A DNA stretch of 64,000 nucleotides from assembly GCA_039811685.1 (NCBI GenBank), contig JBDHZC010000003.1, positions 64,001-128,000 on the forward strand. Reading direction: 5' to 3'. Positions 58,287 through 64,000 of the stretch are shown here, in pieces. Both the position numbers and the translations under genes were made by a program. A model generated the notes under the pieces. The model had not been told where the DNA came from. It saw only the letters and a program-made list of their open reading frames with translations, and did no database searches. This DNA is from Armatimonadota bacterium. GTDB taxonomy: Bacteria > Armatimonadota > UBA5829 > DSUL01. How positions within the stretch are numbered: position 1 is the stretch's first letter; every line of letters begins with the position of its first letter.

Positions 58287-58367
58287 GGGGATGTGGTGGA
58301 ACGGTAGACACGCTGTCTTGAGGGGGCAGTGAGGAAACTCGTGAGAGTTCAAATCTCTCCATCCCCA
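58287..58367 (+). tRNA. tRNA-Leu(GAG)
   Basis: Acceptor GGGGATG/CATCCCC, anticodon arm CTGTC-TTGAGGG-GGCAG, long variable arm, T loop GTTCAAATC. Confidence 0.95.
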
Positions 58368-58467
58368 TTTTACTGAACTCCAGAAAAACCTGAGTTCAGT
58401 CAGGGGCTTGCCGGACAGGGCGTTTTACCTGCCCGTCGGCCAGGTCAGGCCCTCATTGGCTGTCCGG

Positions 58468-58539
58468 GGGCGATTGGCGCAGTGGGAGCGCGCCTCGTTC
58501 ACACCGAGGAGGTCACTGGTTCAAATCCAGTATCGCCCA
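58468..58539 (+). tRNA. tRNA-Val(CAC)
   Basis: Acceptor GGGCGAT/ATCGCCC, anticodon arm CCTCG-TTCACAC-CGAGG, GGTTCAAATCC. Confidence 0.95.
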
Positions 58540-58635
58540 TTTTTGTTTTCCGTGGAAGAGCTGAGAGGCGCTGGGCGCCCTTTTGCCGGCCGCGCAGGTG
58601 GCGGTCGAAGCGACGGTGTGAATCTCAGACAGGCT

Positions 58636-58710
58636 GCGGGCGTAGTTCAGTGGTAGAGCGTCTGCTTCCCAAGCAGGATGTCGCGAGTTCGAATCTCGTC
58701 GCCCGCTCCA
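58636..58710 (+). tRNA. tRNA-Gly(CCC)
   Basis: Acceptor GCGGGCG/CGCCCGC, anticodon loop TTCCCAA, GTTCGAATC, encoded CCA. Confidence 0.96.
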
Positions 58711-58786
58711 GTTTGTAAGTTTGCTCTTTGAGGAGCGCCCCTGAGCGCTCCTCTGTCTTTGTAAAGAGCGCCTCGCGAAAGATCGA

Positions 58787-58857
58787 GGCGGCGTAGCCAA
58801 GTGGTAAGGCAGGGGACTGCAAATCCTTCATCAGCGGTTCGATTCCGCTCGCCGCCT
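58787..58857 (+). tRNA. tRNA-Cys(GCA)
   Basis: Acceptor GGCGGCG/CGCCGCC, anticodon loop CTGCAAA, GGTTCGATTCC, U discriminator. Confidence 0.95.
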
Positions 58858-58958
58858 TTTCTCCCTCAAAACCTCCTCACACCGCAGAGGAACCGGAAGT
58901 CTCTGACTCTAACTCTGCGTCAACGTTTTCGCGCGGGGTCTGCTGAGGAGAGTTGGAC

Positions 58959-60227
58959 ATGACACACGTTTTCAAAAGCGCTCTTTCGCTGGTTTTCATC
59001 GCTGCGGCGGTTGCTGGCGCGCTCTTACCGGTGCGGGCGTGGGCTGCTCCGGATCCAAAGGCAGACGGCAGCGCGGACGCGTCTTCCGCCATTCAGGCGA
59101 AGCTTGACGCCCTTGCCGGAGACGGCGGAGTTTACAGTCTGCCTGCAGGGCGGTACCGGCTGGACCACGGCATCAGCGTTCCCACCGGAGTTACACTGGC
59201 GGGAACCTGGCAGGCGCCTCACCACGCGGAGGGCAGGAAAGGCACCATTCTGCTTGGCTACGCCGGAAAGGGCAGGGAGGCGGGAGCGCCACTCATCCAC
59301 CTGTCGCCCAACAGCACGCTCAAAGGTGTCACCATTTTCTACCCCGAGCAAAAGCTGCCGGATCCGTTCCCTTACCCGTGGACCATTCAGGGCGAAGGCA
59401 TGCACGGCAGCGTTATTGACGTGACGCTTGTGAACTGCTACAAAGGCATAGACTTTGGCGACAAGCCAAACGAACTGCACTACATCCGCAACGTTTTTGG
59501 CTGTCCACTGAAGGCCGGTATCCACATCGACCAATGCACAGACATCGGGCGCATTGAGAATGTCCACTTCAATCCGCACTACTGGCAACGCTCCGGCGAG
59601 CCGGGCATCCCCTCCTGGGAGAATCTGCTGAGCTATCTCTTCCACAACCTCATTGCGTTCAGCATCGCCCGTAGCGACTGGGAGTTCATGCAGAACACCT
59701 TTTCTTTCGGGGCAAAAGTCGGCTACCGCTTCTACTCCAGCAAAGCGGGCGCGTGCAATGGCAACTTTTCAGGAATCGCGGCGGACTGGGCCGAGACCGC
59801 AGTCCTTGTTGAGCAAACTCAGCCGCCCGGACTGCTCATTACCAACGGTGAGTTTGTCGGCGGGAAAGGCAGCAAAGCGGTCATCGACGTGCGCCCGTCG
59901 CACAGTGGCGTCGTGCAGCTTTCCAACTGCGCCTTCTGGGGTCCCGTGGAGACGAATGTGCGCGTGGATGGGCCGGGCTATGTCAGCCTCAGTCAGTGCA
60001 ACTTCGTCAACTGGGACGCAAATAATACAGGCGCCGCGTGTGTTCAGGCTGTCGGCGGTGAGATCAACATCGCGAACTGCATGTTCCGCGAAGACAAAAG
60101 CCAGATTGAGCTTCAGTCCGGTGTCCTCACCGCCACAGTGCTTGGAAACCGCTTCGCCGGCGCCCAGCGCATCCAGAATCAGAGCGCGGGAGATGTCCAG
60201 ATCGCCAACAACGTGACGCGTAAATAA
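58959..60227 (+). CDS. Secreted right-handed beta-helix protein (pectate lyase 3/GH28-related superfamily)
   Basis: Signal peptide; ADG..D.S.AIQA.LD, LPAGRY and VP.GVTL.G; Asn/Cys-ladder beta-helix pattern. Confidence 0.8.
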   Translation: MTHVFKSALSLVFIAAAVAGALLPVRAWAAPDPKADGSADASSAIQAKLDALAGDGGVYSLPAGRYRLDHGISVPTGVTLAGTWQAPHHAEGRKGTILLGYAGKGREAGAPLIHLSPNSTLKGVTIFYPEQKLPDPFPYPWTIQGEGMHGSVIDVTLVNCYKGIDFGDKPNELHYIRNVFGCPLKAGIHIDQCTDIGRIENVHFNPHYWQRSGEPGIPSWENLLSYLFHNLIAFSIARSDWEFMQNTFSFGAKVGYRFYSSKAGACNGNFSGIAADWAETAVLVEQTQPPGLLITNGEFVGGKGSKAVIDVRPSHSGVVQLSNCAFWGPVETNVRVDGPGYVSLSQCNFVNWDANNTGAACVQAVGGEINIANCMFREDKSQIELQSGVLTATVLGNRFAGAQRIQNQSAGDVQIANNVTRK

Positions 60228-60272: not shown

Positions 60273-61067
60273 TCAGTCATACCCGTGCCCGTAGCCGTCT
60301 CTGCTGAACACACCATTTGGTGACACACGCTCGCTGTCGAAGCTGGTGGAGCTGGTCACAAACTGCGCGTGCCCATCAGCGAAAATCACGGTCGCGCCGC
60401 CGGGGTGCCACTGCCTGTACCAATCCGGGACATACCAGTAGCGCGTGCCTGTCGGGTCTTCCTTTGGCCCAGCCCAGGGCATCATCTCATCCCGCATTAT
60501 CCGCGTCTCAGAGGGAAACTCGAACTCGGCGTCCCTGATGATGTGGTGCGGTTTGTTCACCTGCGCGTCGTTCTGGGTGGAGTTGTCCGGGTTGCCTGGC
60601 TGATTCACGATGCTGAAGCAACCTTTAGTGAATCTGTAGCTGGACCCGAATTTTTTGGCGTAGCTTTCAATATTTTGGCCACCGTTGGGGCCGCCGGTAT
60701 CGTCAGGACATTCGAAAATGCCCTGGCTTTTCGCATATGGCAGCACCTGCACTTCTACGCCTTTGTGAGGTGTCGTCGTGCAGTACATTTGAAAGATAGG
60801 CCAGGAGCTGTTGTTGTCATCCACATACATGCGCACGGCAGTGCCCACTTGCCGCGCCTGCGTCAGGCATGTAGCTACCCTTGCCCGTTCTTTGGCGCTG
60901 GTGAATACAGGAAAGAGAATCGCCGCCAGAATAGCGATGATGGCGATGACAACCAGAAGCTCGATGAGCGTGAATCCGTGTTCGTGTTGTATCCCGACGT
61001 GAGCTGAAGCGCGGCTGTGAGTCTGGTTGCGCGCGCCGCCTGCGTTGCGTCGTCTGAGTGCCCTCAT
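60273..61067 (-). CDS. Prepilin-type N-terminal cleavage/methylation protein with C-terminal H-X9-DG motif (DUF1559-like)
   Basis: G|FTLIELLVVIAIIAILAAILFPVF..A.E.AR...C; F.CP.D; HPGGATVIFADGH; GGAGG RBS. Confidence 0.92.
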   Translation of the reverse strand: MRALRRRNAGGARNQTHSRASAHVGIQHEHGFTLIELLVVIAIIAILAAILFPVFTSAKERARVATCLTQARQVGTAVRMYVDDNNSSWPIFQMYCTTTPHKGVEVQVLPYAKSQGIFECPDDTGGPNGGQNIESYAKKFGSSYRFTKGCFSIVNQPGNPDNSTQNDAQVNKPHHIIRDAEFEFPSETRIMRDEMMPWAGPKEDPTGTRYWYVPDWYRQWHPGGATVIFADGHAQFVTSSTSFDSERVSPNGVFSRDGYGHGYD

Positions 61068-61093
61068 GGTGTACCTCCACCGGAGCGGCCACA

Positions 61094-61135
61094 CAAACGA
61101 AAACGCCGCCGACCGGAAACTCCCGGCCCGCGGCG
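61094..61135 (-). terminator. Intrinsic terminator in the riboswitch expression platform
   Basis: Minus strand CGCCGCGGGCCGGGAGTTTCCGGTCGGCGGCG followed by TTTTCGTTTG, between the aptamer and the RBS. Confidence 0.7.
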
Positions 61136-61207
61136 AAACAGACGATCCATTTAGAAGAAGGTCTCAATGAAGAGTGACGGAAGACGCTCCCGCAGCTCTT
61201 CGCTATT

Positions 61208-61300
61208 CCGCTTTCCTACGCCGGCATTATCCGGATCAGGTTCCTGGGGTCGCTCCGTTATTGCGGAGCCTCTCAGCCGGCGAACCGGCTCCCCCAGCGG
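61208..61300 (-). ncRNA. TPP (thiamine pyrophosphate) riboswitch
   Basis: Minus strand CCGCT-GGGGGAGCC...GGCTGAGA...GACCC.AGGAACCTGATCCGGATAATGCCGGCGTAGGAA-AGCGG. It has the UGAGA and AACCUGAUC.GGAUAAUGCC.GCGUAGG consensus and a closing P1 stem. Confidence 0.95.
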
Positions 61301-61492
61301 TGACATCTCGCAGTCGGCATGCGGCGTGCGCCGCCCCGTTGCTGTTCAACGTACCTGCCGCGAGCCATTGGCTCGCTGGCAAGTCCCAACTTCACTATAC
61401 CCATCCTGACCTCCATTCGCAACCAAACCTCGCCTTTGCCGCGCCACACATGCTGCAATCGACGTGCGCTGCTTGGAAAACTCCAGTTATTC

Positions 61493-61576: not shown

Positions 61577-64000
61577 ATGTCTGTGTTCACTTTCTTTCCT
61601 GAGTTCGCCTGTACTCCGGCTGTCCGGCGTCTGGCGCTAGCGTCTGTGTGGCTGACGCTTTTGTCTGCTGTTTTGGTCGGGGCTGACTGTATTACCGCTC
61701 CGGTTCCCGGGACTCCTTCAGTCTTTGGCGCGTCCACCAACAGCCTCAAAGTCGCCGCCTCCGCATCCGACCTGGACGATGTCTATATCGCCTTTCTGGT
61801 GACGGACGGCGCCTACACCCAGAGGTACGTTCAGGCTAACGGCGCTCTCGGCGCGTCTCCCGTCTGGAAGCTGCGCACGGACTGGAAAGCCGTCACAGTT
61901 ACAGGGCTCTCGAGCGCAACATCCTACATCTTTCAGAGCATCGCCGCTCGGGATACAGGCGGCGCCTGTGCTTCGGAGCCAGGCTCTCCCGCAGAAGGCA
62001 CAACGCTGATGATGTCCGGGGCATTCGCGGTGCCGCCAGGCTTCAGCGCCTCTCTGTGGATGAGCCCCGGGTCAGGCATCAACGGCGGAGATGGCGTCAC
62101 GTTCGCTCCGTACACGGGTCCTGGAGGGGGCACACGGATGTTCATCACGAACGCCTACTGGGGATCTGGAAAGGTCTTTAGCGTCAAGATCAACGGAGAT
62201 GGCTCAGCGGGCGTGACACAGGATTTTGCCTCCGGTTTTGAAGATCAGATAGTCAGCGCAACGTACAATCCAGCTAACGGCTACTGGTACGCGGGAGCGG
62301 GCACCAAAGTCTACTGGATGAAGGACAAAAACGGCGACGGTGATGCGCTGGACCCCGGAGAGAAGGGCGTACTGTTGAGCAACCTTGTAAGCGCTGGTAG
62401 CAAGCACGCTGTGGACAAGGTCCAGTTCAACCCGCAGAATCCGAGAGAACTGTTTTTTGGCGTGGGTTCTCATAGCGATCACGGCGAGTCTGCCGACCCT
62501 GCCTATCAGGCGATTATCCGCCGGGCGATGCTCTCACCAACCAATCCGGAGCAGGTGACCGCCGAGTCTATCAACGACCCTTCGTACTACATTTACGCAA
62601 GCGGCTTGCGGAACTCAAGCGGTGAGGTTTTTCTGACCGATGGACGCCTCGTCGCCACAGAACATGCCCCGGACTGTGACGTTTCTGAGGAGCTGAACGT
62701 CATCACCCAGGGTGCGTGTTATGGTTTTCCGGCGTGGTATGCAGACGGAACTGAGCCGACCGGAGGAGCGGTGTCGTGCTTCCCGCAAGGAACCTGCAAC
62801 TTCACGTGTCCGTGCCCCAATGACTTTACAAAGCCTGTCGCTCTCTTCCCGCCCCACTCAGCGCCCATTGGCATCGTGCAGTACACGCTCACGCAGTTTC
62901 CACTCAAGTACAGAGGACGTCTCTTCGTAGCGGAGTTTGGCAATCTGGTGAATATGCAGGATACCTCCTCCGGGCGTCGCCTGAGCATGTTTCAACCGGA
63001 CTCTGACGACGGCACAGGACACTGGCAGCGGGCCGATTTTTTCAGCGAGCCCAACACGAACGTCAATACGCGCCAGTTATCCTGGCTCGCCGATGTCCAG
63101 CAAGGACCGGACGGAGCGTTGTACGCTGTTGAGTTCTCAAACCAGGGTTTTGGCGGTAACAGCGGCTCTATCTTTCGCTTAAGCTTCTCCGACCCGACTC
63201 CTCCCACTGCGATATCTGTTCAGGATGAAGGATCGGTTACGGGAAGCACAAGCACGTTGAATGTCACGTGGACTCCCTCGTTTGATCCGCAGTCCGGCAT
63301 CCGCCAGTACTGGTACAGCGTTGGCACCGCGCCGGGGCTGGCAGATGTCAGGGGGTGGACTGGCGCTGGAAATGTGCTCAAAGCCTCAATTCAGGGACTG
63401 TCTCTCCAGAACGGGCAGACCTACTACGTGAATGTTCGCGCCGAGAACGGTAACCTTGGGACCAGCTTCCAGGGCGTGTTCTCTCCCGTTGCGAGTACCG
63501 ACGGTATTACAGTCAGCGTCCTGCCACCTGTCTCATTGCAGATCGAAGCGCCCTCAGTGACTGCGACAGCGAGAGGCCCGGCGACGTTCCCCGTCACCTA
63601 CCTGAACGCCTCGTCTGTTTCGCTGAGTCCTTCAGACGTGACTCTGATTGCAACCGGAAGCGCATCCGGCACGATTTCCGTTGTTGGAAGCGGTCTCAGT
63701 CAGCGCGACGTCGTTGTGAGCGACATTACCGGAGATGGAACTCTGGCCATATCCATAGCCGCAGGAACTGCCTCCAATCTCAGTTCATCAGCGCCGGCCG
63801 CAGGGCCGTCCGCCGCTGTTGTGGTCGATACAACCGCCCCGATAGTGTCGCAGGCGTCTCTTGAACCGGATTGTGTCCACTCCGGCGGTCCTTTGACTGT
63901 GCGGGCGACAGTTCAAGATAGCGGAACCGGAGTCAGTGCTTCCGGCGCTTTGTTGCTTGGTTCAAATATCGCACTCAACGCGGATTTTGAGGACGGCACG
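61577..64000 (+). CDS. Large secreted multidomain protein: FN3-like, sorbosone/soluble sugar dehydrogenase-like beta-propeller, FN3/Ig-like domains; 3' truncated
   Basis: Missing from the ORF track, presumably because no stop is reached. Partial manual translation gives a signal peptide, LFFGVGS, YASGLRN, EELN.I..G..YGFP, PHSAPIG...FP..YRG.LFVAEFG and D.QSGI.QY.YSVGTAPG..DV..WT. Confidence 0.85.
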   Translation, partial: MSVFTFFPEFACTPAVRRLALASVWLTLLSAVLVGADCITAPVPGTPSVFGASTNSLKVAASASDLDDVYIAFLVTDGAYTQRYVQANGALGASPVWKLRTDWKAVTVTGLSSATSYIFQSIAARDTGGACASEPGSPAEGTTLMMSGAFAVPPGFSASLWMSPGSGINGGDGVTFAPYTGPGGGTRMFITNAYWGSGKVFSVKINGDGSAGVTQDFASGFEDQIVSATYNPANGYWYAGAGTKVYWMKDKNGDGDALDPGEKGVLLSNLVSAGSKHAVDKVQFNPQNPRELFFGVGSHSDHGESADPAYQAIIRRAMLSPTNPEQVTAESINDPSYYIYASGLRNSSGEVFLTDGRLVATEHAPDCDVSEELNVITQGACYGFPAWYADGTEPTGGAVSCFPQGTCNFTCPCPNDFTKPVALFPPHSAPIGIVQYTLTQFPLKYRGRLFVAEFGNLVNMQDTSSGRRLSMFQPDSDDGTGHWQRADFFSEPNTNVNTRQLSWLADVQQGPDGALYAVEFSNQGFGGNSGSIFRLSFSDPTPPTAISVQDEGSVTGSTSTLNVTWTPSFDPQSGIRQYWYSVGTAPGLADVRGWTGAGNVLKASIQGLSLQNGQTYYVNVRAENGNLGTSFQGVFSPVASTDGITVSVLPPVSLQIEAPSVTATARGPATFPVTYLNASSVSLSPSDVTLIATGSASGTISVVGSGLSQRDVVVSDITGDGTLAISIAAGTASNLSSSAPAAGPSAAVVVDTTAPIVSQASLEPDCVHSGGPLTVRATVQDSGTGVSASGALLLGSNIALNADFEDGT

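Follow-up and report, generated by a model that had tools for sequence, protein, structure and literature searches.

We analysed a stretch of 64,000 nucleotides (the window) from an Armatimonadota bacterium (assembly GCA_039811685.1, contig JBDHZC010000003.1, positions 64,001 to 128,000), near the end of which a thiamine pyrophosphate (TPP) riboswitch stands before a gene for a 264-residue prepilin-type protein with a C-terminal H-X9-DG motif, here called P0001. The gene is an open reading frame (ORF) at 60273-61067 on the minus strand, with its ATG at 61067, and is the only gene of its transcript. The aptamer (61196-61305, minus strand) matches Rfam RF00059 over the full model (positions 1-105 of 105; 78.9 bits against a gathering score of 54.3, E = 6.4e-14), retains every consensus position and is the sole riboswitch that an Rfam scan found in the window. 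It is followed by a GC-rich, terminator-like stem-loop of the expression platform (61104-61135, minus strand), which appears in both the minimum free energy and the centroid fold of the leader and has -27.5 kcal/mol in a separate hairpin scan, and by a U-rich tail read from the sequence (61094-61103, minus strand; at least 5 U in 8); the hairpin was recognised by folding and missed by a simple scanner for the terminator consensus. A ribosome-binding site, GGAGG (61074-61078, minus strand), likewise read from the sequence, lies 6 nt before the ATG. Downstream, the unit ends at a convergent gene outside it for a beta-helix, pectate-lyase-like protein (58953-60227, plus strand; ORF map and Pfam), and upstream the ORF map places a divergent gene at 61577-64000 (plus strand). 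With a convergent neighbour on one side and a divergent one on the other, the riboswitch can therefore control one gene only.

P0001 begins with a 31-residue leader peptide (60975-61067, minus strand) that ends in Gly and precedes a mature N-terminus of F-T-L-I-E, and both Pfam N_methyl (PF07963; 37.1 bits, cut-off 21.2) and NCBIfam TIGR02532 (34.0 bits, cut-off 16.3) match at residues 28-52. The prepilin cleavage site falls between G31 and F32, with Glu at E36 (position +5). Toward the C-terminus, the H-X9-DG motif (H221-X9-D231-G232, from H221 to G232; 60372-60407, minus strand) is covered by TIGR04294 at residues 220-238 (22.9 bits, cut-off 19). P0001 also matches PF07596 (DUF1559/SBP_bac_10) with 32.4 bits over a gathering score of 23.3 but only across profile positions 2-85 of 268, so that its DUF1559 membership, as judged from this match, rests on the N-terminal third of the profile; the Pfam name SBP_bac_10 we take to imply a clan of periplasmic solute-binding proteins. 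An earlier note, made from the letters of this stretch, had described a canonical TPP aptamer at 61300-61208 (minus strand), a hairpin with a U-rich tail at 61135-61094, a ribosome-binding site with a lone gene as the only target of the riboswitch, and a product with a prepilin cleavage site and a C-terminal H-X9-DG motif; the Rfam, folding, ORF and profile results bear out each of these.

The pairing of riboswitch and pilin-like gene is not particular to the window. Within the window's family (6 genomes) 8 TPP riboswitches were found, each of them ahead of a pilin/H-X9-DG ORF, with a ninth family ortholog, cut by a contig end, standing outside this count. Orthologs scoring above 250 bits were present in 6/6 family genomes and in 0/35 other genomes of the class, the scores being 257-358 bits within the family and at most 147 bits in the 35 others. 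Of 30 TPP loci retrieved from the class, pattern matching located the aptamer in 26. Six of these were pilin loci of the family; the remaining 20 were non-pilin, and there the gene after the aptamer was Thi4-like in 17, ThiC in 1 and ThiS-ThiG in 2 (Pfam confirmed 2 Thi4, 1 ThiC and 1 ThiS-ThiG, the remaining Thi4-like assignments being by likeness).

A wider search for orthologs was made by protein likeness and not by riboswitch, over one genome per species of bacteria and archaea. It yielded 31 full-length orthologs (43-52% identity) in records of Chthonomonadales, Capsulimonadaceae, Armatimonadales and Fimbriimonadia, and in 31/31 the region immediately upstream has, on the strand of the gene, an RF00059 match exceeding the gathering score. 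A second search (alignment A1) had a 32nd ortholog (L181) among the matches listed, whose TPP aptamer scored 75.7 bits with a custom model. The generic N-terminal pattern dominated this second search, and divergent orthologs free of the riboswitch could escape both locus searches; with that scope, an upstream TPP riboswitch accompanies 32/32 orthologs in other Armatimonadota and 8/8 testable family copies. Moreover, in an alignment of 32 aptamers (that of the window and those preceding the 31 orthologs) 98.3% of cells pair and 10/20 pairs show compensatory changes, which 0/500 shuffles reached, and slid controls paired at 32-62%; the structure was derived from the same 32 sequences, which is somewhat favourable to the covariation result. 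A hairpin of -12 kcal/mol or lower with a U tail follows in 28/32 leaders. One of the loci comes from a metagenome-assembled genome (MAG) labelled Janthinobacterium lividum (L048) and holds a full Armatimonadota-type unit of riboswitch, pilin, thiamine pyrophosphokinase (TPK), SSF permease and ABC genes. Its pilin groups in the tree with orthologs labelled Capsulimonadaceae and Armatimonadales, and the label is probably a binning error in the record.

The riboswitch is also specific to one branch of a large set of paralogs. We counted 47 ORFs with the prepilin-type motif in the genome that holds the window (hereafter the host genome), about 35 of them DUF1559-like paralogs. When the regions upstream of 36 other pilin-type host genes were scanned with all of Rfam at E <= 0.1, none contained a TPP riboswitch, and all of Rfam likewise gave no riboswitch of any kind for 23 loci with more distant homologs, those of Verrucomicrobiota and Planctomycetota among them; a custom TPP model, which recovered 5/5 positive controls, found no TPP element in 78 further loci. 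In a tree of 89 proteins, built by a quick search and with several long branches among the paralogs, 35/35 TPP-linked proteins including P0001 form one long-stemmed clade (SH-aLRT 99), and 34 host paralogs fall outside it. The globular domain of this clade is strongly conserved (57% mean column identity). Its invariant residues include Y81, D84, H101, E105, D123, Y136, R189, R192, Y210, W220, D231 and H233, and among 35 orthologs the invariant polar residues are D84, H101, E105, D123, R189, R192, D231 and H233. Within the H-X9-DG motif and its flank, those 35 sequences show no change at D231 and H233 and very little at H221 and G232. The earlier note had drawn attention to an aromatic patch in P0001, which stands in part: Y210 and W220 never vary among these orthologs, Y212 and H221 hardly do, and the rest of the patch is variable.

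We inspected the 31 ortholog loci for genes that follow the pilin on the same strand. A gene for TPK (thiN) lies directly after the pilin in 12/31, with an SSF permease gene next in 8 of these 12; against the SSS superfamily model the operon permease scores 76-95 bits, below the cut-off of 184. Two or three of the operons go on to an ABC ATPase and a UPF0014/FetB-like permease (L044 7016-8564; L048 6917-8382), the latter scoring 162.7 bits to the FetB model, below that model's cut-off. A complete genome of the window's family (G001) carries two riboswitch-pilin units, one leading into TPK and SSF genes and the other into two genes for PF09819 YkoE-type ECF S-components, and P0001 is closer to the pilin of the TPK/SSF unit (60% identity) than to that of the YkoE unit (45%). 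In the host, and likewise in a second genus of the family (g3), no operon partner follows the pilin gene, and the TPK gene of g3 sits elsewhere; in broken operons the riboswitch therefore stays with the pilin and not with TPK.

Two variants of this arrangement deserve mention as observations in their own right. In one Armatimonadales locus (L047 4769-5572) the TPP-linked pilin and TPK are separated by another, distinct DUF1559 pilin gene, which places two pilin-like proteins under one TPP riboswitch. In another family genome (G003) the TPK found between pilin and SSF in G001 is missing, leaving a gap of about 490 bases (L032 1690-1791 versus L040 6327-6813); this may be a real deletion or a fault of the assembly, which is in 430 contigs.

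The host genome (3.42 Mb in 15 contigs, 97% complete) holds one TPP riboswitch in a genome-wide RF00059 search, namely the one described here. Queries confirmed by Pfam from related genomes gave 0 tblastn matches there for Thi4, ThiC, ThiG and ThiS, and ThiE was not found either (4/4 genomes of the window's family were without a match, and the outgroup G015 has 2 copies). Because these genes were not found, the host appears, as far as gene content tells, to lack de novo synthesis and to depend on external thiamine. ThiL is present (242.8 bits; G000:C1:747446-748423) and no ordinary TPK was found in the 97%-complete genome, and therefore thiamine monophosphate (TMP) is the likely intracellular intermediate on the way to TPP. 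A 447-residue host protein (L038 727-2070, which is G000:C1:12838-14181) was considered as a TPK and set aside, its match of 34.4 bits, just over the Pfam cut-off, covering a 36-residue stretch of the TPK catalytic domain only. It also occurs in genomes that possess a true TPK and is presumably SteA-type-like. Thiamine phosphorylation varies within this one family: the host has ThiL and no ordinary TPK, G001 shows the reverse, TPK and no ThiL, and both enzymes occur in G002 and G004; the imported vitamer may differ among its genera. We also looked at five operon-carrying genomes from other classes: in 4 the pilin-linked TPP riboswitch is the sole one, and the fifth has two, the other lying near ThiE genes.

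A parallel comes from cobalamin. The only cobalamin riboswitch of the host (114.7 bits) turned up in one of the 36 upstream regions scanned with Rfam. It lies directly before another H-X9-DG paralog (G000:C4:94458-95414), and the unit (G000:C4:92496-95691; L138 6496-9692) continues on the same strand with genes for a 185-residue PEP-CTERM protein and a 444-residue secreted protein, for which no known family was matched. Among 30 cobalamin loci fetched out of 49 matches in 41 genomes of the class, 19 precede a pilin-motif ORF, 17 of these with a strict H-X9-DG, and the 19 cobalamin-linked pilins form a clade of their own in the 89-protein tree (SH-aLRT 97). In the PVC (Planctomycetes-Verrucomicrobia-Chlamydiae) group we looked at 6 cobalamin loci from four genomes, of which 1 precedes a DUF1559 pilin (L170, a Pirellulales MAG); in another (L171, a Verrucomicrobia MAG) the riboswitch precedes a homolog of the 444-residue protein (27% identity, E = 2e-12), which suggests that a B12-linked gene set is shared across phyla. 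The proposal that other paralogs would sit behind other riboswitches gains one case in this way, cobalamin, in 19/30 related loci and 1/6 PVC loci; the riboswitch for flavin mononucleotide (FMN) gave 0 matches in the 41 genomes and so offered no locus on which to judge it.

The host also has the machinery with which pilin-like proteins work. We found one Peptidase_A24 match as the prepilin peptidase (C6:40131-40526, 55.2 bits), three secretins, four full-length GspE/PilB-type (T2SSE) ATPases and shorter PilT-like matches; no prepilin peptidase, ATPase or secretin gene of the host adjoins the P0001 gene. A search of the host genome for the Plug domain of TonB-dependent receptors found 0.

Taken together, these observations make a role of P0001 in thiamine acquisition very likely, at a rough probability of 0.8 by our own estimate, because the pairing with the TPP riboswitch is conserved and clade-specific, because relatives add thiN and permease partners, and because the host appears to be an auxotroph. 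The thiamine link that the earlier note had proposed gains in the same way from the retained riboswitch in both sets of orthologs, the thiN, SSF and YkoE partners, the missing biosynthetic genes and the single TPP riboswitch of the genome. More narrowly, P0001 is probably an envelope protein repressed by thiamine that takes a direct part in capturing or taking up the vitamin. When cellular TPP is high, the aptamer would bind TPP, the terminator would form and the transcript would stop before the gene; when TPP is low, transcription would run through the pilin-like gene. The product would be cleaved between G31 and F32 by the single prepilin peptidase of the host, its hydrophobic helix would serve as an anchor, and a globular part of about 200 residues would lie outside the cytoplasm. 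That this outer domain binds thiamine, or one of its vitamers, and delivers the ligand to a carrier in the inner membrane is a proposal to which we would give about even odds. The globular part would hand its ligand to the carrier, which in relatives would be the SSF permease or the YkoE-type S-components.

A further step, that P0001 is displayed on or retracted with a pseudopilus working through a secretin, is speculative and in our judgement clearly the less probable alternative. P0001 would then be mounted on a pseudopilus resembling those of type II secretion systems (T2SS) and type IV pili (T4P), by way of one of the three secretins. Such a route would fetch vitamins independently of TonB and would fit both the absence of Plug domains and the cobalamin-linked paralog. 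Its extension to the whole H-X9-DG/DUF1559 superfamily, as ligand-specific receptor subunits for TonB-independent nutrient uptake by pseudopilus and secretin, is if anything a shade more doubtful.

A number of points weigh against a part of P0001 in thiamine uptake or qualify the evidence for it. On the side of regulation, a search of the leader by eye turned up no convincing antiterminator pairing that would compete with the terminator. A sigma-70-like promoter candidate (TTGCGA, 17 nt, TATAGT; 61394-61422, minus strand; 9/12 in a consensus scan) lies about 90 nt upstream of the aptamer, and contigs of three RNA libraries end at 61364, 61372 and 61391, none extending further upstream, which hints weakly that transcription starts a little downstream of this candidate. 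The RNA contigs cover gene and leader, one of them running on into the convergent gene, and as assembled contigs they show neither strand nor level nor transcript ends and are no proof of transcription or regulation. On the side of physiology, no inner-membrane thiamine carrier was found in the host by searches for YkoE-type, operon-type SSF (tblastn), PnuC, ThiT and ThiB, which in a 97%-complete genome means not found rather than absent. Carriers of the SSF and ECF kinds normally work without a separate binding protein, so that a hand-over from P0001 would be without precedent, and thiamine is small enough to pass through porins, so that there is no obvious need for a pilus route. Among the operon-carrying genomes of other classes, 2/5 have ThiE-like genes, and because of these the TPP-linked pilin, as far as gene content tells, is common in auxotrophs and not confined to them.

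The protein itself adds to these difficulties. It matches none of the known families of thiamine binding or transport (ThiB/TbpA, ThiT, YkoE, PnuT) in Pfam or NCBIfam at E <= 0.01, and a sequence search of the PDB matched the N-terminal helix only, leaving the globular part without a relative of known structure. We built an AlphaFold2 model from a 35-ortholog alignment (predicted local distance difference test score, pLDDT, 80.8; predicted template modelling score, pTM, 0.75), which has a helix at 34-84 followed by strands. Compared by VIA-align with 48,161 chains, its top matches are pilins and pseudopilins, all at Z <= 5.0 and so within the stated noise range of the tool: PilA4 at Z 5.0 (root-mean-square deviation, rmsd, 3.9 over 121 residues), EpsG at Z 4.6 and PulG at Z 3.8, each of them weak. 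Foldseek gave no PDB match to the full model at E <= 0.001 (best E 0.23), and an ESM Atlas search returned DUF1559 clusters only. A model of the domain by itself was poor (pLDDT 71.3, with four of the five models at or below 53); its top match was the DNA-binding minor pilin ComP, again weak (Z 3.6, rmsd 3.7 over 87 residues), and Mg-dependent inositol-monophosphatase/CysQ folds at Z 2.3-2.9, below the noise level, were mixed with pilins among its matches. Among the listed VIA-align and Foldseek matches, all of them weak, no chain with a two-lobed alpha/beta binding fold appeared. The modelled fold is thus pilin-like at most, and the fold searches identify no binding pocket and do not show the fold to be new.

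Three other explanations of the same locus were considered. The one that survives best, which we nonetheless regard as unlikely, is that P0001 is an envelope enzyme acting on thiamine vitamers, for example by removing phosphate from external TPP or TMP or by salvaging degraded thiamine, with a metal site made of His, Asp and Glu. The invariant polar residues would suit catalysis as well as binding, a TPK that re-phosphorylates imported thiamine would fit dephosphorylation outside, and the weak inositol-monophosphatase/CysQ matches point the same way; however, the Z values of those matches are far below the stated noise level and also below the pilin matches, and P0001 matched no hydrolase family in Pfam or NCBIfam. 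Moreover, the H-X9-DG motif is common to the whole paralog family including the cobalamin clade, and so is not specific to thiamine.

Somewhat less probable again is that P0001 is a structural or adaptor pseudopilin, which would engage a T2SS/T4P-like machine during thiamine starvation, for example to secrete or display another scavenging factor, and would not itself bind thiamine. The prepilin N-terminus, the weak pilin-like fold matches and the machinery genes of the genome are all as such a protein would have them, and the PEP-CTERM and 444-residue secreted proteins of the cobalamin operon could be cargo. In the TPP operons examined, however, there is no secreted partner, the neighbours being a cytoplasmic TPK and membrane permeases, and in the host and genus g3 the gene is alone; a vitamin-specific clade with so conserved a domain (57%) better fits a surface for a specific ligand or partner. 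The last explanation, that the riboswitch is an orphan of gene loss or rearrangement, or no longer senses TPP, and that the pilin-like gene has nothing to do with thiamine, can appeal to the lack of a thiamine gene beside the host pilin, but the conservation data leave it next to no room: the pairing persists in every ortholog examined, so that the refuting outcome named in the earlier note, orthologs that lack the riboswitch, did not occur; it does so across several classes and with compensatory changes in the aptamer, broken-up operons leave the riboswitch with the pilin and not with TPK, and the TPP aptamer has lost none of its consensus positions.

A role for P0001 in thiamine acquisition can be set beside systems already described. 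Thiamine transport and salvage operons under TPP riboswitches include the ThiT and YkoEDC ECF systems, ThiBPQ, PnuT, ThiV-type SSF permeases and the TonB-dependent receptors of Bacteroidetes. The present units resemble them in having a TPP aptamer and terminator platform before uptake or salvage genes, in the TPK, SSF or YkoE partners of the relatives and in a host for which no de novo synthesis was found; unlike them, the first and only constant gene here is that of a prepilin-type DUF1559/H-X9-DG protein, a class that to our knowledge is not among the described components of thiamine transport. Since the operon SSF permease matches the generic SSS superfamily only, and that below the cut-off, a ThiV label for it would be an analogy.

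Comparison with pilins and pseudopilins is likewise of two sides. Similar to GspG, P0001 has an N-terminal helix that TIGR01710 recognises (residues 30-86), with EpsG and PulG among its weak fold matches, and the Asp-Gly motif near its C-terminus is reminiscent of the loop that binds calcium in GspG. As a GspG major pseudopilin it was rejected: the TIGR01710 score of 39.8 bits, from the N-terminal helix only, compares with an equivalog cut-off of 88.85, the gene lies outside any gsp cluster, and its product has a far larger head domain. Ordinary pilin heads, too, are about half as large as this globular domain, and the PDB search gave no sequence relative for it. ComP of Neisseria is a DNA-binding pilin, and competence pseudopili serve uptake. 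In Planctomycetes, one report describes dextran binding to pili-like fibres on crateriform structures (PMC5394234). P0001 would share with these systems a pilin-type N-terminus, T4P/T2SS machinery in the genome and a filament subunit that captures an external substrate; it would differ from ComP and the planctomycete fibres in a ligand that is a small vitamin and not a polymer and in expression set by a riboswitch, and it is known here from genes.

P0001 shares its N-terminal signature and C-terminal motif with the DUF1559/H-X9-DG families of Planctomycetota, Verrucomicrobiota, Lentisphaerota and Armatimonadota, whereas in Armatimonadota the proteins have shorter chains and align with only the opening third of the Pfam profile, and the TPP and cobalamin clades are each tied to a named metabolite by a riboswitch. 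Few paralog families in Planctomycetota, Verrucomicrobiota and Armatimonadota are larger than these, which number tens to hundreds per genome and have no function assigned; for Planctopirus limnophila, one study counts 68 DUF1559 paralogs of unknown function, two of them essential (PMC10632474). A search of the open literature, which leaves subscription journals and supplements uncovered, found no account of a DUF1559/H-X9-DG or pilin-like vitamin component under the control of a riboswitch. Since a riboswitch names its ligand, the TPP and cobalamin clades together with the thiN/permease operons give the family a first testable assignment, and the recurring pairing of TPP riboswitch and pilin points, from sequence data, to a previously undescribed kind of vitamin-acquisition component. 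If this is true, the thiamine and B12 clades would be the first two members of the superfamily with nameable ligands, and they would represent a new mode of vitamin import across the diderm envelope. Such a mode bears on the supply of B12 and B1 in bacteria in which no TonB-dependent receptor plug domain is detected, and would add to thiamine salvage a class of component that current pathway reconstructions miss. The public runs that hold the 64-kb stretch are from activated sludge and wastewater, and in this habitat of the host vitamin cross-feeding shapes communities.

Elsewhere in the window, four tRNA genes lie within about 570 bases (58287-58857, plus strand), just upstream of the convergent beta-helix gene.

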